Below are positions 11,005-47,325 of a DNA stretch of 64,000 nt, piece after piece. Below the pieces are notes generated by a model. That model made no database searches. It was given only the letters and a program-made list of their open reading frames with translations, and was not told where the DNA came from. Both the position numbers and the translations under genes were made by a program. Source of the stretch: Alphaproteobacteria bacterium (GTDB lineage Bacteria > Pseudomonadota > Alphaproteobacteria > RF32 > CAG-239); assembly GCA_048463395.1 (NCBI GenBank), contig DBFWPL010000002.1:24098-88097 (forward strand). The letters are read 5' to 3'. Position 1 is the stretch's first letter, and every line of letters begins with the position of its first letter.

Positions 11005-11362
11005 CATTATATGGGTAAGTTTGTTTGATTTCTGCGACTTTTTGGCGGCGGAGTTCCAATAGTTGAGAAATTTCGGCTTCAATATCCGGTGTGGAAATTT
11101 CATCCCGTAAACGGTTTATTTCCAAAGTCAGGCAGTCGGTTTCCATGGCGTAAGCACGTGAGCGGAGAATACGTATTTCTTCATTGCTTAATGTTGGTTT
11201 GGGCGGCAGAAATCCGGATAAATAAAATCTTCCGTCGCCGTTGGTTTCAACTTCCTGTTCCGTAAAGCCTGTGTTTAAGAAATAAATAGTATCAGGGTTT
11301 TCTCCGGCGGCGATACAGACTTCTTTAGTTTGTTGATTGATTATTTTGCTCAGTTTCTTCAT
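11000..11362 (-). CDS. phage tail-fibre assembly chaperone-like protein
   Basis: 120 aa. C-terminal ...LTLEINRLRDEISTPDIEAEISQLLELRRQKVAEIKQTYP resembles Tfa-type tail-fibre assembly proteins. It sits immediately downstream of, and overlapping, a tail-fibre-like gene. Confidence 0.4.
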   Translation of the reverse strand: MKKLSKIINQQTKEVCIAAGENPDTIYFLNTGFTEQEVETNGDGRFYLSGFLPPKPTLSNEEIRILRSRAYAMETDCLTLEINRLRDEISTPDIEAEISQLLELRRQKVAEIKQTYPYNA

Positions 11363-12329
11363 GTTTGCTTCCTTTCAAAGGGAAAAAAGTGTATAAGGGG
11401 TTATAACTGCTTAAGCCGGACCAGCTGATGACATCTCCCGTTCCGACCCAGACATCACGAGTTCTTGTAACGGAAACGCTTGGCATTTCGTCAAAAACAA
11501 TTCGGGTACCGTTGACGGTAACGTTAATTGCGGTTACGATTGCACCGCCCTGAAGGTTAATCATTCCCGGCTCTTGAGCCGTAAACGGGCTGGTTATGGA
11601 ATAACCGCGGGTATAGTCTGGAATGCCTAATTCAACGATGGTTGTTTTGGCTTCGGTTGTTAAATTGGCGGCGTTGTTATCCGCTTTGGCGGCGATTTGT
11701 TCTTCCAATTCGGGAAGAATTGTATCCATGTCTTCTTTGGTGTTGCGGATTTCTTCCAGATAAGTTTGTGTTTGCTGCAGAATTTTTGAATTGGTTTCCG
11801 AAGCTTCAAGAACGACGGAAATGTTTTTTTCCAAGTCGTTTAGTCTGAAAGAAGAGTTTTGCAGTTCTGTTTCATCATCACTCCAGACAATAGCTTTGCC
11901 GGCTTCCGGCATTGGCAGGCTGACGTCCATTTGTGTTGGGGCAGAAGGCGGAAAAGTTACCGTGCGTCCGATAAGGTCTTCAAGCTGCTCCATGCAGGCA
12001 AGCTGATAGTCAAATTCAGAGTTTACTTTGGAGCTCATAAACGGTCCGACTTCTTTGAAGTTGGTAGTTCTTTTAAATGGAATGCTGCGATACAGCGTGA
12101 TAACGGTTCCTTCTGCCGGCGGGGTATCAAAAATAACGGTACCGCCGTTGATGTCCGGAGATGAGCTCATGATAACGGAATAACCGTTTTCCAAGAGTTT
12201 GTTGTCCAGATATATTTTAACATCATCGGGGTTGAAAATCGGAAAATGGAAATAATATTCGGACCGGGTGCCGTCGGCAATAAGGCGTAAACGGGGTTTG
12301 ACGCTGCCGGAATCTTGAGGATTGGACAT
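11325..12329 (-). CDS. T7-type tail fibre-like protein
   Basis: N-terminus ...LIADGTRSEYYFHFPIFNPDDVKIYLDNKLLENGYSVI matches the pattern of the T7 gp17 N-terminal tail-attachment domain (DGSNRDFNIPFEYL...VVVTLIG...TDYRF). A central coiled-coil-like segment and a beta-rich C-terminus follow. GGAGA lies 5 nt before the second ATG (12329); the track start at 12422 is probably too long. Confidence 0.5.
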   Translation of the reverse strand: MSNPQDSGSVKPRLRLIADGTRSEYYFHFPIFNPDDVKIYLDNKLLENGYSVIMSSSPDINGGTVIFDTPPAEGTVITLYRSIPFKRTTNFKEVGPFMSSKVNSEFDYQLACMEQLEDLIGRTVTFPPSAPTQMDVSLPMPEAGKAIVWSDDETELQNSSFRLNDLEKNISVVLEASETNSKILQQTQTYLEEIRNTKEDMDTILPELEEQIAAKADNNAANLTTEAKTTIVELGIPDYTRGYSITSPFTAQEPGMINLQGGAIVTAINVTVNGTRIVFDEMPSVSVTRTRDVWVGTGDVISWSGLSSYNPLYTFFPLKGSKHEETEQNNQSTN

Positions 12330-12509
12330 TTCTTTCTCCATTGTTGTTAAGTTGAACAATCGAGAAGATAAACAAATAATAGTGGCAATTGTTCTTGTAT
12401 AATATTTTTTAGAAAAAGTCAAGGAATAAATTCCTATTTTATACGGTTGACTTTTGAATTATGATGATTACTATCTAATTTAGTTTTTAATTTATGAGGA
12501 GATTTGAAT

Positions 12510-13256
12510 ATGGCTGAGACAGAAAAAAGCTGTGGCTGCAGAGGAAAATGTTTTGGTGCGGCGGTTTTGGCTTTGGGTATTGCTCTGGGCGGGTTTTTTC
12601 CGGGGTATTACTATTATCAGGCAAAAGTAAACAACAATTCGGTTACGGTCAAAGGTTTGGCTGAAATGGATGTGAAAGCCGATCTTGCCGTTTGGGATTT
12701 GAAGTTTGTGGTAACCGGAAATGATTTGCAACTTTCCAGACAAGAGGTGTCTGCTCAGGCTTTGGCTATTCGTCAATTCTTGCTTGAAAAGGGTTTTACA
12801 AATGAGGAAATCAGCGACGGACGGATTGAAACCAATGACCTGATGGCTAATCCGTATCGCAGTAATGAGTTGAACGGAGCTCGTTTTATTTTGACGCAGA
12901 CAATCAAAGTCAGAACACATAATGTGGATTTGGTTGAAAACGCTTTGGCTCAAACCGGAGATTTAATCGGCAAAGGGGTTATTTTTGACAGTCAGTCTTA
13001 TGGGTATCCGGTATCGTATGTCTTTACAAAACTGAATGAGATTAAACCTCAGATGTTGGAGGAAGCAACAAAGAATGCCAAAGAGGCCGCTTTGGAATTT
13101 GCCAAGAGCAGCGGCAGCAAGGTCGGTAAAATCCGCAGGGCAAATCAGGGCGTATTCTCTATTCTTCCGGCTGAACAAACTTCCAATGCCATGGAAATGC
13201 AGCAGATAAATAAAAAAGTACGCGTGGTTTCCACAATAGAATATTGGTTGGATTAA
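12510..13256 (+). CDS. SIMPL-domain (YggE/DUF541-like) periplasmic protein
   Basis: GAGGAG lies 9 nt upstream of the ATG at 12510. N-terminal TM/signal, followed by a typical SIMPL-domain region (…NDLMANPYRSNE…, …QGVFSILPAEQT…). Confidence 0.65.
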   Translation: MAETEKSCGCRGKCFGAAVLALGIALGGFFPGYYYYQAKVNNNSVTVKGLAEMDVKADLAVWDLKFVVTGNDLQLSRQEVSAQALAIRQFLLEKGFTNEEISDGRIETNDLMANPYRSNELNGARFILTQTIKVRTHNVDLVENALAQTGDLIGKGVIFDSQSYGYPVSYVFTKLNEIKPQMLEEATKNAKEAALEFAKSSGSKVGKIRRANQGVFSILPAEQTSNAMEMQQINKKVRVVSTIEYWLD

Positions 13257-13257
13257 T

Positions 13258-13292
13258 TGAAGAAAACCCCTCTCATTTGAGAGGGGTTTGTT
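13258..13292. terminator. bidirectional terminator between convergent genes
   Basis: aaaacccctctcatttgagaggggtttg hairpin with flanking A/T runs. Confidence 0.55.
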
Positions 13293-13300
13293 GTTAATTG

Positions 13301-14029
13301 TTAAGGGAGTATGCCAACGCAAATGTGTGGAAATTTCATTTGAGATACTGCGGTCATTTGATAGTTATTGACCATGTTGTAGGGCGTTCCTCCCTTGAGC
13401 CAGATAGAAGCTGATTGTGTTCCTCCTCCGAATGTATATCCATCACTACTTATAGAAATTAAGTTTAAATTTTTAACAATTGGTGAGGTGCTGGTTGCAG
13501 TTTTTAAATTAGCTATCATGCTATATTTGTCTTTTAGCAGTTGGGCCTCTTCAAGGCTAGGCAGATGTCCGGTACAGAGATAGTTTGGTGCTGTGTTGAT
13601 GGCGTGGGCAATACTTGCACATTTATATTGACAGAATGTACTGTTATAACTTTCCGGGGTGCCGTTTCCTTCCAGTAGAACTAATTTGGTAGAGGCATTT
13701 ACCACTATACCGATAGCCTGTTTATCGGGTAAAGCTGTTGTCGGTCGGCTCCATGTGCCGTCTTTGTATACGATGTCTCCATCTTGCAGGGGAATGTTTT
13801 GAGCCAAAAATTCATCTCTGCTGAGTGATGTTCCGCAAGATATTTTACTTTTATCAAAAGGACATTTCAATGTTTTTAGGCCGACACATTGTGCTTCAGT
13901 CATTGTGTATCCTAATTCTTCACAAGAAGGAGGAGTGTCACAGGTTTGGGCGGAAGCTGTTGAGGCGGCGAAGGAGAAAGCGAGTATTGAAAGGCTAACT
14001 CCCCATATATTTCTAAAATTATCAGTCAT
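13301..14029 (-). CDS. cysteine-rich secreted protein (hypothetical)
   Basis: Signal peptide MTDNFRNIWGVSLSILAFSFAASTASA, then Cys-rich region with a CxxxGYT motif. Shares motifs with the upstream gene. Confidence 0.5.
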   Translation of the reverse strand: MTDNFRNIWGVSLSILAFSFAASTASAQTCDTPPSCEELGYTMTEAQCVGLKTLKCPFDKSKISCGTSLSRDEFLAQNIPLQDGDIVYKDGTWSRPTTALPDKQAIGIVVNASTKLVLLEGNGTPESYNSTFCQYKCASIAHAINTAPNYLCTGHLPSLEEAQLLKDKYSMIANLKTATSTSPIVKNLNLISISSDGYTFGGGTQSASIWLKGGTPYNMVNNYQMTAVSQMKFPHICVGILP

Positions 14030-14044
14030 AATCTTTCTCCTTGT

Positions 14045-14998
14045 TTATTTAGTTATAGGTTTCATCCAACATTTATACCAAGAGCAGGTATCAATGTCGG
14101 TGTATCCGGTTGCACATCCGGTAATGTAGTATTTGGAAGAGCATTTCTCAAAAGAGCAGGTGTACCCTGTCGGACAAGAGGTATAAGTACCGACATTCGG
14201 GCAGGATTTACATTTGTTGTATTTGGTAACGCCGTTTTCGGTACAGCTTTGTGCACCGGCTTCGTATCCCAAGTCGCATTCAATGAACTCAGCAGAGCAT
14301 GAGCAGCCGTTCTTTGAAGCGTTTACAACATAAGGGTATTCACAAGATTTACAGATATTTTTCGGGTAGAAATATGAAGTTAAATTCTGATTGCTGCGGC
14401 AGTAGTTGTATGCTTCCACGATATTAGAGCGGTAATCCTGTTCAGAGATGTATTCGTTTTCAGCGGAACAAGGGGTTAGAGAGCTATCGGTACATCGGCA
14501 AGCGTAATAAGTACCGGATTTATCGGAACATGTTTCGGTTTGGGCAAGTTTTCCGCAGGTTGAAAGTCTGTTGCTTTCGGTAACGGTATAGTAAGTTGTA
14601 TCGCACAAACAGGCTTTAAAGTATTTATTATCGTGAGGGCAGCTGGTTGTTTCGTCAGGGAAGGAGTTTTGAGGGCATTCCGTACGATTAAAGCCTTCGT
14701 CCCGGCATTGTAGGGAGGTGTCAATATTAGTATCGTTGTCAGAATAGTTAAGACCAAGACCATAGGCGTTTTTATCAGAGTTAACAATAGATCTGACAGC
14801 GGCGAGTTTGACGGTATTATCCGAGTTAAAAGAGGATATAGGCTTCAGCTCCATGGGTGTATGTGTGTGTGGTGTGTGTGTGTTTACCAGAGGGGTACCA
14901 GAGTAAGCCAAAGTCAGATGTTTAGCCTCGGAGACCTGAGGGTTGCCGGAGAGCAAGACGCAGGCAGAGGCCAGTAAAAAGAACTTAGTATCAGTCAT
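14045..14998 (-). CDS. cysteine-rich secreted protein (hypothetical), ~35 Cys
   Basis: Signal peptide MTDTKFFLLASACVLLSGNPQVSEA. HT(P) repeat encoded by an imperfect (GT)n tract. Repeated C-x-GYT motifs (CPTGYTC, GCATGYTD). Confidence 0.5.
   Translation of the reverse strand: MTDTKFFLLASACVLLSGNPQVSEAKHLTLAYSGTPLVNTHTPHTHTPMELKPISSFNSDNTVKLAAVRSIVNSDKNAYGLGLNYSDNDTNIDTSLQCRDEGFNRTECPQNSFPDETTSCPHDNKYFKACLCDTTYYTVTESNRLSTCGKLAQTETCSDKSGTYYACRCTDSSLTPCSAENEYISEQDYRSNIVEAYNYCRSNQNLTSYFYPKNICKSCEYPYVVNASKNGCSCSAEFIECDLGYEAGAQSCTENGVTKYNKCKSCPNVGTYTSCPTGYTCSFEKCSSKYYITGCATGYTDIDTCSWYKCWMKPITK
14856..14884. repeat. imperfect (GT)n/(CA)n dinucleotide tract inside the CDS (encodes THTPHTHTP)
   Basis: ggtgtatgtgtgtgtggtgtgtgtgtgtt as read in the sequence. 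Confidence 0.7.
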
Positions 14999-38096: not shown

Positions 38097-38609
38097 TTAA
38101 AGTTTTATGTCGGACAGGTCAATGGCATCCAGCAATTCGTTCAGTTCTTTTTGATGGTAAATATGCTCGCTGAAAAGGAGCATAACCGAGATGCAGGCTC
38201 GCAATGTGTTACGATTGATTTCCTCCGGATGCATTTCTCCAACTTTTTGGATCAGTTGATATTCAACGGAAGAAAGTCGATAAGAAGTTCCCATGGGAAC
38301 TTGTTTGAGAACAGTTTCCATTGTCTCCAAGTATTCGGAAACAACGTTGCATTTTTGTTCACTGATGTAAACATTGAGTTGATAACGGGCAAGTCTTCGG
38401 ATGTCGCTTGCGTATTTATGTCTTGTGTCCGAGAGAATTTCTTTTTGGCAGTTGTCCTTATTTAGGATGAAGTCCCACATTGTTTTCCGAAAATCGGAAT
38501 TCTTGTCGTGGGTAATGTCTGATATCTCAAAGAATTTCTCCAAGATGGATTCTGAAAAGACAATCTTATTGCCTATCAGACTAAACAGTTTTTCTTGTAA
38601 TTCGCTCAT
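38097..38609 (-). CDS. hypothetical protein (170 aa)
   Basis: Clean ORF with AT-rich flanks. No recognisable motif. Confidence 0.4.
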   Translation of the reverse strand: MSELQEKLFSLIGNKIVFSESILEKFFEISDITHDKNSDFRKTMWDFILNKDNCQKEILSDTRHKYASDIRRLARYQLNVYISEQKCNVVSEYLETMETVLKQVPMGTSYRLSSVEYQLIQKVGEMHPEEINRNTLRACISVMLLFSEHIYHQKELNELLDAIDLSDIKL

Positions 38610-39120: not shown

Positions 39121-40776
<1,656 letters not shown>

Positions 40777-40797: not shown

Positions 40798-40832
40798 AGA
40801 AAGGGGGCTCTTTTTTAGAGTCCCCTTTTTGG
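40798..40832. terminator. bidirectional terminator after groEL
   Basis: aaagggggctcttttttagagtcccctttttgg. Confidence 0.7.
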
Positions 40833-40843
40833 TTGGTGATTGT

Positions 40844-42847
40844 TTATCTTCCTCTTGATCTTGCCGCTAACAAAAGTTGAGGTGTCGGAACTTGAGATGT
40901 TTGGGGTTGTTGAGTTTGTCCGGTGTTAGTGGGAACTGTCTGTTCTTTCATATTTTTTTGTTTGTTCTCGGAGGTCCGTTGTTGTATTTTTTCTTTTTGT
41001 TTTTTGAGTCGTTCTTTGGTTTCCGGTTCAATACCTTTCAGTTCGGAGATGTCGGGAAGATTGCTCATCTCAATATTGTTTTCCAGGCAGGCAAGCATTA
41101 ATCTTGCTTTAAATTCCGGAGACTTGATGTCGCCGAAGATGATTTTTTGACCGGTTTTCTTAGCCAGCAGAGCCAAGTCGTTGAAGTCTTTATAATCAGG
41201 AATTTTCGGTTTTTTATCTTTGTCTTTGCTCCCTAAACTTATTCTGTTTTCAGAAGTGGCAACAATGTTAAGCTCCTCGCCGTTTTTGCGGGTTAATTTT
41301 GCTTTGTAATAAGGAGAGGTTTCATCTTCCGAGTATTGTGATTTTTCCTGTTTGGCAATATTTTGGTAGAATTGACGATAAGGTTTTGCAAATTCTTTAT
41401 CCGGGGTGGCTTGTGGTTTATTTTTCGGTTCAGAAATGTTTTCTTCGACTGAAATTTTAGAGTTTGGTTGTTTTTCTGTTTGACGGTCATTCAAATTCAA
41501 AGAAGAATCTGCTTCGCGAATTTTTTCCCGAAGCATCTCTTCGGCGTGCTTGATGGCGTCAAGGAGTGGTTCTCTCCATCCGGGTTTGTTTATGGTTTCA
41601 CTGGCGATTTTTCTTCTTTCTTGGCTTTTTTCAATAATCTCTCGGCTTTCTTCGTTAATGTCTACATCAACGGTTATCAATTTTGATAAATCTTTGGTTT
41701 CGGTTTGGGGATTATAAACCTCAAAACTATAGAACAGCGAACGTTGGCGGTTGTATTCTTCATGATTAACATCATCAGGTCGAGATGTGTAGCTTTGTGC
41801 ATGCTGAAGGCATAAATTTTCAAATTGCATATTATATTGTGCTGTATAGTTTTTGTTCCAGTTTTTTATACTGCTGTTTATCAGTAAGGTATGGTCAGAC
41901 AAGATTGATTTGATTTCTTCAGTTGTTTTTCCTTTTAAAAGGTTATCCAACCAAGGGTTGTCGTGTCTGACGGTGTTTAGCAAATCATCATTGTTATTTT
42001 TGAAATAGTTGTTCACAGCCTCTATTAATACGGCGACTTCTGCAGATCGTTCGTCTTCTACATTGATTCTGTAAATGTCTTCACAAGAGAGTTTTGGTGT
42101 TCCTTCTTTTATTTGGCGTCTGTCCCTGAGAAAATGATTTTTAAAATGTTTGCATTCATGAATAAAAGCACTATGCTTATGTTTTTGTTTTGCATGAGCC
42201 TGAGAAATTATTAAATAAAGATTCTGTTCCCGATAAGGAAGAGTTTTCAAGTAGTCGGGGTTGTTTTTGATTTTATTTTTTATATCCAGATATTTTTTGA
42301 AATCTTCCTTTTTAAAAAGATATCGGGGCATTTTGAAATTCATCAGGAGAGACTCGGAGTCTGCATAAGCAGAACCACCAAGATAATCATCATTTTTATT
42401 GATAATTTTTCTGTCTTTATCGAAGTAGTCCAAATTTCCGTCTTGATCAAGTTCCAAATACATATCTCGTATATCGGCCTCAATGGTGTAATTGAGTTTT
42501 TTCATCATTGGAGGAATTTCATTGTCCGGAACCGGTTTATAATCAAACAGAGCAACATAATCTCCGATTTTTTCGACCTGAGGAAAATCAGGCAGATGGC
42601 TTAAGTCGTTTCTAAAAGGTTTTGTGTCAGGAAAAGTTTGTGGAGGCAGTTCGTGATTAAGAAAATAGGTTAGATAGTTATTTAAATCCGTAAATTCATT
42701 TTTTGACATTTTATCAAGGAAATCCGAGCGAGATAACTTAGAGTATTTCTCTTTTTTTTCTTGAGCTTCAGCGGGATCATTAACAACAAGAAAAAATCCG
42801 GTTTCCGTGAGGACGGTGCGTTCAATGAGAGGGTTGGTTTCAGACAT
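40844..42847 (-). CDS. large low-complexity K/E/N-rich hypothetical protein (effector-like), 667 aa
   Basis: No signal peptide and no TM segments. Charged, disordered C-terminal third ending in ...TQQPQTSQVPTPQLLLAARSRGR. Followed by a very AT-rich 300-bp upstream region. Confidence 0.5.
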   Translation of the reverse strand: MSETNPLIERTVLTETGFFLVVNDPAEAQEKKEKYSKLSRSDFLDKMSKNEFTDLNNYLTYFLNHELPPQTFPDTKPFRNDLSHLPDFPQVEKIGDYVALFDYKPVPDNEIPPMMKKLNYTIEADIRDMYLELDQDGNLDYFDKDRKIINKNDDYLGGSAYADSESLLMNFKMPRYLFKKEDFKKYLDIKNKIKNNPDYLKTLPYREQNLYLIISQAHAKQKHKHSAFIHECKHFKNHFLRDRRQIKEGTPKLSCEDIYRINVEDERSAEVAVLIEAVNNYFKNNNDDLLNTVRHDNPWLDNLLKGKTTEEIKSILSDHTLLINSSIKNWNKNYTAQYNMQFENLCLQHAQSYTSRPDDVNHEEYNRQRSLFYSFEVYNPQTETKDLSKLITVDVDINEESREIIEKSQERRKIASETINKPGWREPLLDAIKHAEEMLREKIREADSSLNLNDRQTEKQPNSKISVEENISEPKNKPQATPDKEFAKPYRQFYQNIAKQEKSQYSEDETSPYYKAKLTRKNGEELNIVATSENRISLGSKDKDKKPKIPDYKDFNDLALLAKKTGQKIIFGDIKSPEFKARLMLACLENNIEMSNLPDISELKGIEPETKERLKKQKEKIQQRTSENKQKNMKEQTVPTNTGQTQQPQTSQVPTPQLLLAARSRGR

Positions 42848-43161
42848 CTAGCTTTTCCTTTGAAAAAAAATATTAATTTTATCTTATCATATCAAGACAT
42901 ATTATACAAATGTTTTATAGACAAAATGTGATTGCAATTTAATGGGAAATGGTATTGCTCAGCACTTAATTCTATCCATTTTTGGGTTTTGGAAAAATAA
43001 ATGGACAAAATTTCAGGAGACGATTGTTGACAAAAATTGTAAACTGTGATAGCTTTTTGTCATTCGAAAATAATTATTCTGGAAAATACAATTTTGTATA
43101 AAGTTAAGGTATTTAACTTTTCCGTTTTGATTGTTTTCATAATCTTTAAACAAAAAATTAT

Positions 43162-43407
43162 ATGAAACAGAAGAACAAGAAACAAAAATCTTGGTTTAAA
43201 ACCCAAGTTATCAAGGTACAGATATTGCCTTGGTATTGGAAACTTGTCGCTACACTGCTTATCTTCTTTTTGGGAGGAACGTTCGGTACACAACTTTTTA
43301 CTGCTGCCGATGATCTTTTGATGATCTGTGGTTTTGCTGTTCTGGCTGTGGCACTATGGTTTCTTATCCAAGTGTGGATGCCTGCACCCGGTGGCGGTAA
43401 AAAGTAA
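43162..43407 (+). CDS. small membrane protein (Lys-rich N-terminus, two TM segments)
   Basis: 81 aa, directly upstream of an SPFH gene. Confidence 0.4.
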   Translation: MKQKNKKQKSWFKTQVIKVQILPWYWKLVATLLIFFLGGTFGTQLFTAADDLLMICGFAVLAVALWFLIQVWMPAPGGGKK

Positions 43408-45223: not shown

Positions 45224-45298
45224 GCGGGCGTAGCTCAGGGGTAGAGCGCAACCTTGCCAAGGTTGATGTCGAGGGTTCGAATCCCTTCACCCGCTCCA
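45224..45298 (+). tRNA. tRNA-Gly (anticodon GCC)
   Basis: Manual fold: acceptor gcgggcg/cacccgc (one C:A mismatch at 6:67), D-arm gctc-aggggta-gagc, anticodon arm caacc-ttGCCaa-ggttg, T-arm gaggg-ttcgaat-ccctt, encoded CCA. Confidence 0.85.
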
Positions 45299-47233: not shown

Positions 47234-47325
47234 TGGAGAGATGGCAGAGTGGTCGAATGCGGTTGACTCGAAATCAATTGTACTCTTTACGGGTACCGGG
47301 AGTTCGAATCTCCCTCTCTCCGCCA
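47234..47325 (+). tRNA. tRNA-Ser (anticodon CGA)
   Basis: Manual fold: acceptor ggagaga/tctctcc, D-arm gca-gagtggtcgaa-tgc, anticodon arm gttga-ctCGAaa-tcaat, long variable arm, T-arm gggag-ttcgaat-ctccc, discriminator G, encoded CCA. Confidence 0.85.

Follow-up and report, generated by a model that had tools for sequence, protein, structure and literature searches.

The closest described systems are found among the substrates of type IV secretion. The C-terminal transport signal of the VirF/VirE2 type, from Agrobacterium, is disordered, hydrophilic and Arg-rich, and has the consensus R-x7-R-x-R-x-R. The X-Tfe effectors of the Xanthomonadales VirB/VirD4 T4SS, which kills bacteria, display a variable enzymatic N-terminus and share a C-terminal domain, the XVIPCD, which is a folded alpha/beta domain of about 100-130 aa, which defines the whole effector set, and which is accompanied by an unstructured tail that is Gln-rich, then hydrophobic with Arg, without acidic residues (PMC8740702, PDB 7MU9). 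In the Bep effectors of Bartonella and in the alphaproteobacterial relaxases, a folded domain and a disordered basic tail are carried by diverse cargo (PMC8740702); here the folded domain, BID, is a four-helix bundle. The transfer of VirF requires C-terminal arginines and the final residues Arg-Gly-Leu, and the XVIPCD and VirF termini contain arginines, no acidic residues, and small or hydrophobic residues (PMC8740702). Concerning the catalytic part of the protein described below, the closest enzymes are the gluzincin metallopeptidases (thermolysin-like, M3, M34 and M78 ImmA/IrrE), where a helix bearing the motif HExxH is followed by a Glu residue on the next helix and where Tyr residues are also conserved. 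Effector proteases such as NleC/NleD, RavK and GtgA belong to the same group.

A complete CDS of 667 aa plus the stop codon (40844-40846) is present in the ORF list at positions 40844..42847, on the minus strand of the window (the whole stretch of 64 kb that was analysed). This ORF, which begins with ATG and whose C-terminal end is ...LLLAARSRGR, is genuine, and public contigs carry an identical protein (called P0001). According to the AF2 model, the protein is composed of two folded and conserved domains, with a disordered linker between them and a disordered tail after the second one. An earlier note on this DNA had described a low-complexity, K/E/N-rich protein with eukaryote-like charged repeats. 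This description was wrong in kind, the protein being folded, with two domains and a putative zinc-protease site, and not a low-complexity repeat protein. The entropy over 40 residues is comprised between 3.3 and 4.0 bits, the lowest values being those of the linker, the C-terminal region and the tail; about 430 of the 667 residues are modelled with a pLDDT of at least 70, and the comparison of the protein with itself revealed no internal repeat. The enrichment in K, E and N does exist and is only moderate (11.1 vs 8.2%, 9.1 vs 6.5% and 8.1 vs 5.4%, respectively, by comparison with the long ORFs of the window), and the protein is hydrophilic overall (GRAVY of -1.0). Other elements of the description were correct: there is no transmembrane segment (maximum Kyte-Doolittle 19-mer of 0.75), the N-terminus MSETNPLIERTV... 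is not signal-peptide-like, and the tail is basic and disordered, with a net charge of +9 over the last 55 residues and a pLDDT below 50 for residues 630-667.

The N-terminal domain (aa 1-445; 41513..42847, minus strand) is a putative gluzincin-type zinc metalloprotease from a family not yet described, on the basis of its conservation and of the AF2 model. All seven close relatives retain it (7/7), the profile search recovers it in 83 clusters or more (50% identity), and its identity among orthologues is of 40-82%. Most of residues 120-450 are modelled with a pLDDT of 65-93, which dips to about 55 at residues 151-170; the model contains a beta-sheet at residues 121-179, followed by helices. 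The alignment of the 73 relatives covering the site reveals that the motif HExxH (H230-E231-C-K-H234; 42146..42160, minus strand) is present in 72 of them, the residues H230, E231 and H234 being conserved in 72, 73 and 72 sequences, respectively. This motif is included in helix 205-244 of the model. The sequence E266-R-S-A269 (42041..42052, minus strand), located in the block INVEDERSA, provides an ExxA context in which E266 is conserved in 73/73 and A269 in 70/73 relatives; E266 is located 32 residues beyond H234, with 31 residues in between, on helix 255-284 of the model. Besides these five residues (H230, E231, H234, E266 and A269), only Y281, Y338 and N379-P380 are near-invariant in the N-terminal domain of the 73 relatives.

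The arrangement HExxH...ExxA on two consecutive predicted helices is the signature of the gluzincin zinc proteases, from which we infer that the N-terminal domain is probably a zinc endopeptidase of this type. The domain resembles the gluzincins by its HExxH helix, by the downstream Glu on the next helix and by its conserved Tyr residues. In the proposed mechanism, H230 and H234 would bind zinc, E231 would act as the catalytic base and E266 would be the third zinc ligand, a role suggested by the gluzincin pattern; a conserved Tyr may help to stabilise the transition state. The HExxH motif, seen in the alignment of the relatives, was missed by the earlier note, which had recognised no homology. 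Its statement holds true for the curated libraries: the 667-aa protein has no match in Pfam, NCBIfam, PHROGs or PADLOC, the scan of 68 relatives at E<=0.1 gave only stray matches below threshold, three profiles (A1, A3 and A4) searched against the PDB sequences produced no meaningful match, and the best E value of Foldseek with the full model against the PDB was 0.19. It does not hold for the sequence databases, where seven close relatives were found among 5.8 billion proteins searched and 228 relatives were found by profile search. The N-terminal domain would add an uncurated, putatively peptidase-like HExxH...ExxA family that matches no curated model.

The linker (aa 446-481; 41405..41512, minus strand) is rich in P/Q/E/K/S, has a pLDDT below 50 for residues 451-481 and differs widely in length between orthologues (alignment columns ~475-590). 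It is followed by the C-terminal module (aa 482-615; 41003..41404, minus strand), a hitherto undescribed alpha/beta domain common to a polymorphic family. With its 134 aa modelled as an alpha/beta sandwich at a pLDDT of 95, the module is a further domain whose fold is predicted with confidence and for which no specific relative was found by sequence or by fold. It was detected in at least 87 protein clusters; word-index searches for proteins, run with the module by itself and with its profile, had very poor recall and gave 5 and 3 matches. The sequences of the clustered proteins show the module to be a separate mobile domain fused to differing cargo. This cargo comprises peptidases that are overall M12/M54/M90-like (Reprolysin_5 in eight proteins, as well as M54 and M90), ankyrin repeats (Ank, E 7e-50), a J-domain in one family member (DnaJ, 2e-17), a thioester domain (TED_2, 2e-12) and Ppx-GppA (6e-16). 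In 10/10 pairs, identity is higher in the module than in the catalytic domain (79 vs 53%), which fits a constraint exerted by a conserved partner. The conserved face of the module bears F90, E97, A100, R101, L102 and C106 (numbered within the module). In P0060 and P0065, the module is internal rather than C-terminal, so that it may be a targeting or binding domain instead of a part of a signal.

Several candidate identities were considered. The KA1 domains (MARK/Kcc4/SAD/Chk1 kinases; KA1-like in METTL16 and TUT1) were compared with the module by fold, and a KA1-like lipid binding was not retained because generic sandwiches match the module at least as well by fold and the module is neutral in charge. 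The idea of an LPD7 or polyvalent-protein domain was dropped in the absence of any match of the module in Pfam, plasmids, phages or viral contigs. As a separate observation, the cargo domain 'WKFHLDV...GKGMTVYVG' of paralogues gives weak RamC_N matches (E 6e-4 and 5e-3) that stay below the curated cut-off. An OspF/SpvC phosphothreonine-lyase assignment of this domain is a lead only, with the RamC_N matches below the cut-off and an empty PDB sequence search.

The tail (aa 616-667; 40847..41002, minus strand) is a candidate export signal, composed of a K/Q-rich helix, a disordered Gln-rich stretch and the hydrophobic/Arg-rich end LLLAARSRGR. In the family, the tails are rich in Gln/Asn, then hydrophobic and basic, with Gly-Gly-Arg at the carboxyl end (consensus hydrophobic-basic-G-G-R-COOH), and acidic residues are depleted. 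Arg occupies position -1 in 41% of the family against 4% of the background; counted separately, 45% of the module-bearing proteins and 33% of the proteins with the N-terminal domain only end in Arg, against 4.5% of the background. The last 20 residues have a net charge of +2.9 (-0.2 in internal 20-mers), and Gln represents 10.9% of the tails against 4.9%. The end of the window protein is disordered, positively charged, Arg-containing and acid-free, as described for the substrates of VirB/VirD4-type systems, and its final six residues ARSRGR match the published description of the XVIPCD and VirF termini (PMC8740702). Its Arg-rich ending R-S-R-G-R also recalls the VirF/VirE2-type signal of Agrobacterium. 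In contrast to the Arg runs of the VirF type, however, a run [RK]-x-[RK]-x-[RK] is rare in the family (in the last 12 residues of only 14/147 members), whose consensus is hydrophobic-basic-G-G-R. Alternatively, this hydrophobic and basic C-terminus could be a membrane-targeting helix.

The family displays the same layout as the X-Tfe effectors: the enzymatic N-terminus varies, the folded C-terminal domain, alpha/beta and of similar length, defines the whole set, and the tail has the same composition. It also resembles the Bep effectors and the relaxases by its folded domain and disordered basic tail on diverse cargo, but has neither relaxase relatives nor plasmid matches. The sequence motifs and the a-a-b-b-b fold of the XVIPCD were not found in the module, and the four-helix bundle of BID is absent from this alpha/beta sandwich. 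As the module has no detectable sequence or fold relation to XVIPCD or BID, the analogy is one of design only.

The gene is preceded by an AT-rich region (42848..43161, minus strand), already mentioned in the earlier note, which corresponds to a gap of 314 bp with 24.5% GC, within the lowest 0.1% of equal-sized segments. This region contains, on the minus strand, a putative promoter (TTGTAT at 42904-42909, N17, TAAGAT at 42881-42886), the RBS AAGGA (42856-42860) and three motifs TTTGTC[T/C/A]A (42917-42925, 43001-43009 and ~43027-43034). The promoter is assigned from the sequence and is therefore putative; the block TGATATGATAAGAT and a TTTTGTC motif are kept upstream of orthologues placed in other genomic contexts. 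The core heptamer TTGTC[TC]A, tested against shuffles and AT-rich background, was detected in 8/12 upstream regions of the family and in 10% of the AT-rich background. The matches of 'TTGACAAA' on the reverse strand were discarded as an upstream motif, since they are merely strong -35 boxes. The upstream neighbour is a divergent membrane ORF of 81 aa. On the other side, groES-groEL are directly adjacent, as had been stated, and groEL ends at position 40776, tail-to-tail with the gene. A bidirectional intrinsic terminator (40798..40835, acting on both strands) is located between them; it consists of a 14-bp GC-rich hairpin between an A-tract and a U-tract, with a deltaG of -31 kcal/mol (z = -3.84; 0/200 shuffles fold equally well). 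The gene thus forms an independent transcription unit. Its own promoter region is conserved, the bidirectional terminator also serves groEL, and the link with groESL is only positional. No CIRCE element was detected within three mismatches anywhere in the 64-kb window. A heat-shock (HrcA/CIRCE) co-regulation or a groESL operon was rejected on these grounds: no CIRCE, convergent genes and a terminator between them.

Wherever the source of a relative could be identified, it was either a gut Alphaproteobacteria MAG (water-deer cecum, human-gut SGB) or a gut metagenome (human-gut contigs). Among the MAGs with members of the family are the assembly holding ERZ14651210 NODE_23, CAZFRT01, JAGAJR01 and GCA_045615365.1. 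The genes of the family are dispersed through the chromosome among housekeeping genes, in contexts that are not conserved, and no neighbour is conserved across the orthologues. In three lineages, the gene has chaperone genes as neighbours: once groESL, in the window, where htpG is also nearby, and twice grpE, which is then the same-strand gene directly upstream. In a fourth lineage, no chaperone is found near the orthologue. The slot between gyrB and polA is variable and harbours different module genes. Among 15 metagenome loci examined by a screen for Walker-A motifs and large ORFs, we observed gyrB, polA, hslU, aspS and a phage terminase, and no secretion ATPase. No T4SS, T1SS, T3SS or T6SS genes were detected in the 64-kb window or in the ~0.4 Mb of family loci, where the closest secretion-related items are only a prepilin peptidase and an SLT transglycosylase. 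The searchable literature on these uncultured gut Alphaproteobacteria holds only 16S surveys.

We consider that the protein is most likely exported, at about even chances, and that it is a member of an effector-like, polymorphic family found in uncultured Alphaproteobacteria of the gut. The effector reading of the earlier note thus receives circumstantial support from features that this note could not see, namely the module cargo, the basic tails, the gut sources and the scattered genes. Export is proposed by analogy, and translocation is inferred, as the check for secretion systems covered the 64-kb window and the ~0.4 Mb of family loci. The module and the tail would form a two-part recognition and export signal, like XVIPCD or BID with their tails: the folded module would serve for docking on a conserved partner, for instance a coupling protein or an adaptor, the unstructured basic end would start the threading, and the protease would work outside the producer, on a host, a protist or a neighbouring cell. 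More tentatively, the 134-aa module and the hydrophobic-basic-G-G-R end might constitute an unrecognised export signal that marks a whole effector repertoire, perhaps with a shared regulator acting at the TTGTCTA sites.

The proximity of chaperone genes has to be weighed against export. The protein could be a cytoplasmic, stress-related metalloprotease, not exported and tied to protein quality control, in which the module, also employed by several enzymes such as the J-domain protein to reach one and the same bacterial structure, is an intracellular targeting or partner-binding domain and the tail is membrane-targeting; we regard this as rather unlikely. The absence of a signal peptide, the position beside groESL and htpG and, in two other lineages, directly 3' of a same-strand grpE, the DnaJ domain fused to the module in one member and the absence of a visible secretion system in any family locus are consistent with such a role. 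However, the neighbourhood is not conserved and the fourth lineage lacks chaperones, the gene is convergent with groEL across a terminator, and the CIRCE element is absent. Furthermore, contrary to a housekeeping protease, the family is limited to a narrow set of gut MAGs (seven close relatives among 5.8 billion proteins), and the ankyrin and thioester adhesion cargo as well as the variable gyrB-polA slot suggest diversifying interaction genes. Export towards rival bacteria is a further reading, which we hold to be unlikely: the family would consist of contact-delivered antibacterial effectors (X-T4SS-like or other), the protease degrading an essential target of the rival. The architecture is exactly like that of the Xanthomonas X-Tfe toxins (PMC8740702), many cargo domains are hydrolases, and a habitat as dense as the gut is favourable to warfare between bacteria. 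Yet no candidate immunity gene adjoins the gene, whose neighbours are the convergent groEL and the divergent 81-aa membrane ORF; the orthologues have different neighbours, the ankyrin, J-domain and thioester cargo is atypical of antibacterial toxins, and homology to XVIPCD is lacking.

Polyvalent proteins are multi-domain proteins with shuffled domains, including zincin-like ones. The architecture of the family, shuffled and with zincin-like domains, resembles them, and one locus (L020) has a phage terminase at about 4 kb, so that the module could be a domain attached by conjugative elements or phages to proteins co-injected with DNA. This reading is largely refuted and its probability is negligible: tblastn found no match in 72,556 plasmids and 50,697 phages, none was found on IMG/VR viral contigs, there are zero PHROG matches, and every annotated context is chromosomal housekeeping DNA. 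The idea of a non-enzymatic, largely disordered charged protein, with HExxH as a non-catalytic relic, is in line with the hydrophilic composition (GRAVY -1.0), the K/E/N enrichment and the failure to match a curated family. It is disfavoured and very improbable, since the models contain two confidently folded domains and the sequence contains no repeats; moreover, no positions in the family are better conserved than HExxH and E266, which is not expected for a relic.

Under the more tentative reading of an unrecognised export signal, the module and tail would represent, by analogy, the third independently evolved recognition domain for coupling proteins after BID and XVIPCD, or the tag of an undescribed export route. 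If the module is a secretion-recognition domain, the solution of a folded domain plus a basic tail would have arisen repeatedly, and the module would offer a portable tag for the engineering of protein delivery. A module and tail tag common to the family would allow the effector repertoire to be read straight from metagenomes and would also reveal the interactions of these bacteria with host, protists and neighbours. Zinc proteases and the ankyrin, J-domain and thioester proteins would make up this repertoire in uncultured Alphaproteobacteria common in the human and animal gut, and the cells receiving enzymes from these "commensals" would be those of the host, of protists or of neighbours.

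The gene under study is an ATG-started ORF located at 40844..42847 on the minus strand, exactly where the earlier note had placed it, and encodes a protein of 667 aa ending in ...PQLLLAARSRGR. The absence of transmembrane segments reported from the sequence alone was recovered (the highest 19-residue Kyte-Doolittle mean is 0.75, with no hydrophobic segment), as was the absence of a signal peptide, the N-terminus being acidic and polar. The C-terminus is indeed basic and disordered (net charge of +9 over the last 55 residues; pLDDT <50 at residues 630-667 of the AF2 model). The described richness in Lys, Glu and Asn is real, at a moderate level only (K 11.1 vs 8.2%, E 9.1 vs 6.5%, N 8.1 vs 5.4%). 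By contrast, low complexity and charged repeats were not borne out: local entropy is near normal and dips lowest in the linker, the C-terminal region and the tail. Roughly two thirds of the residues have a pLDDT of at least 70, and self-comparison of the protein reveals no repeats.

No homology had been recognised either, whereas a search of 5.8 billion proteins detected seven close relatives, either unnamed or annotated as "hypothetical protein [Alphaproteobacteria bacterium]", and a profile run against 1.84 billion cluster representatives recovered 228 relatives. From the alignment of the seven close relatives and the AF2 model, the protein was divided into an N-domain (aa 1-445) conserved in 7/7 close relatives, a disordered P/Q/E/K-rich linker (aa 446-481), a C-module (aa 482-615) present in 5/7 with very high conservation, and a variable tail (aa 616-667). 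The length of the linker varies widely among orthologues and, as judged from the alignment, this region is a hotspot for length change. The linker of the orthologue P0004 contains an internal duplication, in which RLDGPQEEKDTSEKTPLQSETNSQPQTNPQ occurs twice (alignment columns ~480-560). When the best 150 of the 228 relatives and the close relatives were re-scored with separate HMMs, 67 proteins displayed the N-domain only, 71 the C-module only and 16 both. Since proteins with only one of the two parts exist, these parts are independent evolutionary modules.

The residues H230-E231-x-x-H234 are invariant in the seven close relatives, as is the block INVEDERSA, 30 residues on. An alignment of 73 diverse N-domains (about 20% identical to the query) reveals that the only positions conserved at 85% or above are H230 (72/73), E231 (73/73), H234 (72/73), E266 (73/73), A269 (70/73), Y281, Y338, N379, P380 and the column of the query residue N119, occupied by Gly in 63/73 sequences. 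The complete HExxH motif is found in 72 of the 73 relatives covering the site. In the AF2 model, it is included in the helix 205-244 and E266 in the next helix (255-284), both preceded by a beta-sheet (121-179). In the gluzincins, HExxH and ExxA are about 30 residues apart and lie on successive helices that come after a beta-sheet subdomain; in zincins, the transition state is often stabilised by a conserved Tyr. As the motif spacing and the helix order match this arrangement, we infer that the N-domain is a putative zinc endopeptidase of the gluzincin type. The motif argues strongly for catalysis, the fold weakly. The window protein has no match in Pfam or NCBIfam, and scanning 68 relatives at E<=0.1 gave only stray sub-threshold matches to other HExxH families. 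Sequence profile searches of the PDB were empty and Foldseek found no match for the model; the N-domain family is therefore undescribed.

The C-module, modelled from an alignment of 44 module sequences (pLDDT 95, pTM 0.87), is predicted to have the topology helix, four strands, helix, strand, helix, strand, helix. It is associated with a diverse cargo: reprolysin-like M12 domains (8 proteins), M54 and M90 peptidase-like domains, other HExxH N-domains resembling that of the window protein, ankyrin repeats (E 7e-50), a J-domain (E 2e-17) and Ppx/GppA (E 6e-16). The module-bearing protein P0155 contains a partial thioester domain TED_2 (residues 37-84, E 2e-12, above the curated cut-off), a type otherwise known from covalent host-adhesion proteins. 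Another recurrent cargo domain, WKFHLDVVPNRNHP...HKIAxGGENGKGMTVYVG, is found in the N-terminal ~350 aa of P0012, P0017 and P0018 and in the C-terminal part of P0060, P0065 and the 1165-aa protein of the locus L016. It displays weak matches to RamC_N (E 6e-4 and 5e-3, below the curated cut-off) and no PDB sequence match, and may resemble the OspF/SpvC-type phospho-Ser/Thr lyases. Among orthologues, the mean pairwise identity is 79% for the module vs 53% for the catalytic domain, the module being the more conserved in 10/10 pairs. Moreover, P0005, P0008, P0010 and P0012 share nearly identical module-plus-tail cassettes (ending in ...FSPLMGQVLKQKGGR in the first three and in SKGFGR in P0012) behind unrelated N-terminal regions, which suggests shuffling among paralogues. 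The higher conservation of the module and these shared cassettes point to constraint by a conserved partner and/or cassette exchange among paralogues.

Behind the module, the tails measure 46 residues in the median, with Gln over-represented (10.9 vs 4.9%). Throughout the family, the last 20 residues have a mean net charge of +2.9, with at least +2 in 82% of cases, against -0.2 and 22% for internal 20-mers. The chain ends in Arg in 45% of module-bearing and 33% of N-domain-only proteins (background 4.5%). Hydrophobic residues or Q/N occupy positions -12 to -8, basic residues -7 to -5, Gly or small residues -4 to -2 and Arg -1, with acidic residues depleted throughout, giving the rough consensus hydrophobic-hydrophobic-x-x-[KR]-[KR]-x-G-G-R-COOH. 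The tail of the window protein (…TGQTQQPQTSQVPTPQ-LLLAARSRGR) matches this consensus, and no other protein of the 64-kb window has a tail of this kind.

The antibacterial T4SS effectors with an XVIPCD consist of a variable N-terminal enzyme, a folded domain of ~100 aa that binds the all-alpha domain of VirD4, and an unstructured tail, Gln-rich in its N-terminal part (PMC8740702). Their last six residues include at least one arginine and no negative charge, are enriched in hydrophobic and/or small residues, and their deletion abolishes translocation; parallels have been drawn with the BID domains plus basic tail of Bartonella and the Arg-rich terminus of Agrobacterium VirF (PMC8740702). The window protein resembles this design point for point, except that its folded domain is unrelated. 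The likeness is thus an analogy of design and places the protein in neither the XVIPCD nor the BID family. Because of this likeness, our preferred mechanism is one in which the C-module would dock on a conserved component and the basic C-terminal end would initiate export.

The genomes matched by the family are MAGs assigned to Alphaproteobacteria. They comprise MAG material from a water-deer cecum, a human-gut SGB and a gut MAG labelled "uncultured Azospirillum". Some metagenome loci are recorded as "human gut metagenome", and the others come from ENA/JGI assemblies whose names indicate no habitat. The window is ordinary chromosome, with envelope-sugar genes, htpG, groESL, dxs, leuS, a CpaA-like prepilin peptidase, an SLT transglycosylase and tRNA genes at 45224-45295 and 47235-47322. 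Within the cell-envelope polysaccharide region, three consecutive ORFs (365, 242 and 317 aa; 11325-14998, minus strand) have no Pfam family. Nearly every 1-kb bin of 1-64000 has a positive GC skew, the cumulative skew rising to ~10; the plus strand therefore looks leading and the gene under study would lie on the lagging strand. As the earlier note had indicated, groES-groEL adjoins this gene, groEL ending tail-to-tail with it at 40776. Two ORFs without Pfam match lie nearby: one of 170 aa (38097-38609, minus strand) between an ion-transport gene and groES, in synteny kept in the loci L001 and L002, and one of 81 aa (43162-43407, plus strand), divergent from the gene under study and called as a gene in L002, with a Lys-rich N-terminal stretch and two hydrophobic segments.

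The neighbours of the family genes vary by lineage. In two other lineages the orthologue is located downstream of grpE, before ftsK, and in a fourth it is flanked by genes for a HAD phosphatase and a P-type ATPase. An ankyrin-module paralogue lies amid ribosomal-protein genes. In several species (L016-L019, L021-L025), a conserved slot by gyrB (813 aa) contains module-bearing genes that differ greatly in size, namely 636+439, 1165 or 1348 aa (for example L016 5380-14362 and L021 4669-10543), with polA (~920 aa) directly across the slot in L016 and L018 and beyond gyrB in L021-L023. Here a conserved backbone surrounds a site of variable content. Chromosomal positions so dispersed and so quick to change are more readily reconciled with a repertoire of interaction genes than with a housekeeping role. 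In L030 (4613-10444), a 569-aa module-bearing gene is immediately preceded, at a distance of 4 bp, by the gene for a 1372-aa protein whose long central region is hydrophobic and rich in Gly/Ala, and the two may form a two-gene unit. A phage terminase large-subunit-like ORF in L020 (4500-5816), ~3-4 kb from a module-bearing gene, is the only mobile-element hint near any family member.

The gene under study and groEL converge, and the 67 bp that separate them contain a strong bidirectional intrinsic terminator (40798-40835), a GC-rich hairpin with a 14-bp stem between an A-tract and a U-tract (deltaG -31 kcal/mol, z -3.8). Upstream, the 314-bp gap is as AT-rich as had been claimed (24.5% GC, which ranks in the lowest 0.1% among windows of equal size). 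A sigma-70-like promoter block (…TGATATGATAAGAT) is common to the upstream regions of orthologues from differing contexts, as are TTTTGTC[T/C/A]A copies; motifs of this type are located at 42917-42925, 43001-43009 and ~43027-43034 on the minus strand. Two of the three TTTGTCYAT sites of the 64-kb window fall in the 314-bp region. The core heptamer TTGTC[TC]A lies near family-gene promoters in either orientation, also in L003, L004, L009, L016, L018, L020 and L027. After discounting mere -35 boxes, it has 11 occurrences, distributed over 8 of 12 non-redundant, partly orthologous upstream regions of family genes, against a mean of 0.72 and a maximum of 5 in 300 shuffles and a presence in 10% of 124 AT-rich background upstream regions. 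Effector regulons often have a common regulator site, and TTGTC[TC]A may be one, in this small and partly orthologous sample.

Taken together, we favour, at about an even chance, the reading that the protein is a modular zinc-protease effector which is exported and belongs to a polymorphic family, with a T4SS-like route, by analogy, as the leading and still unproven option. The suggestion of an effector, possibly a type IV substrate, thus stands in part, on other and better grounds than those first offered for it, whereas the physical description as a low-complexity protein with repeats and no homology is wrong. The main weaknesses of the favoured reading are that no secretion apparatus is present in the 64-kb window and no export machine was seen in the family loci examined, that in some members the module occupies an internal position, and that the fold lends the zincin assignment weak support. 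The chaperone neighbours and the J-domain paralogue would suit a cytoplasmic protease with an intracellular targeting module, which we consider unlikely; no CIRCE element was found, and the chaperone neighbourhood is therefore without regulatory support.

An antibacterial toxin would have the same architecture, but the gene lacks an immunity gene and the cargo is atypical, so that this identity is rather improbable. The conservation pattern disfavours a non-enzymatic disordered protein, a very unlikely reading. No member of the family occurs in the plasmid, phage or viral-contig collections searched, and a polyvalent protein of mobile elements is largely refuted. In these poorly known gut bacteria, an undescribed putative gluzincin family is thus joined to a shared module, likewise undescribed, and to a C-terminal motif, a combination that would gain in interest should the module turn out to serve as an export tag.
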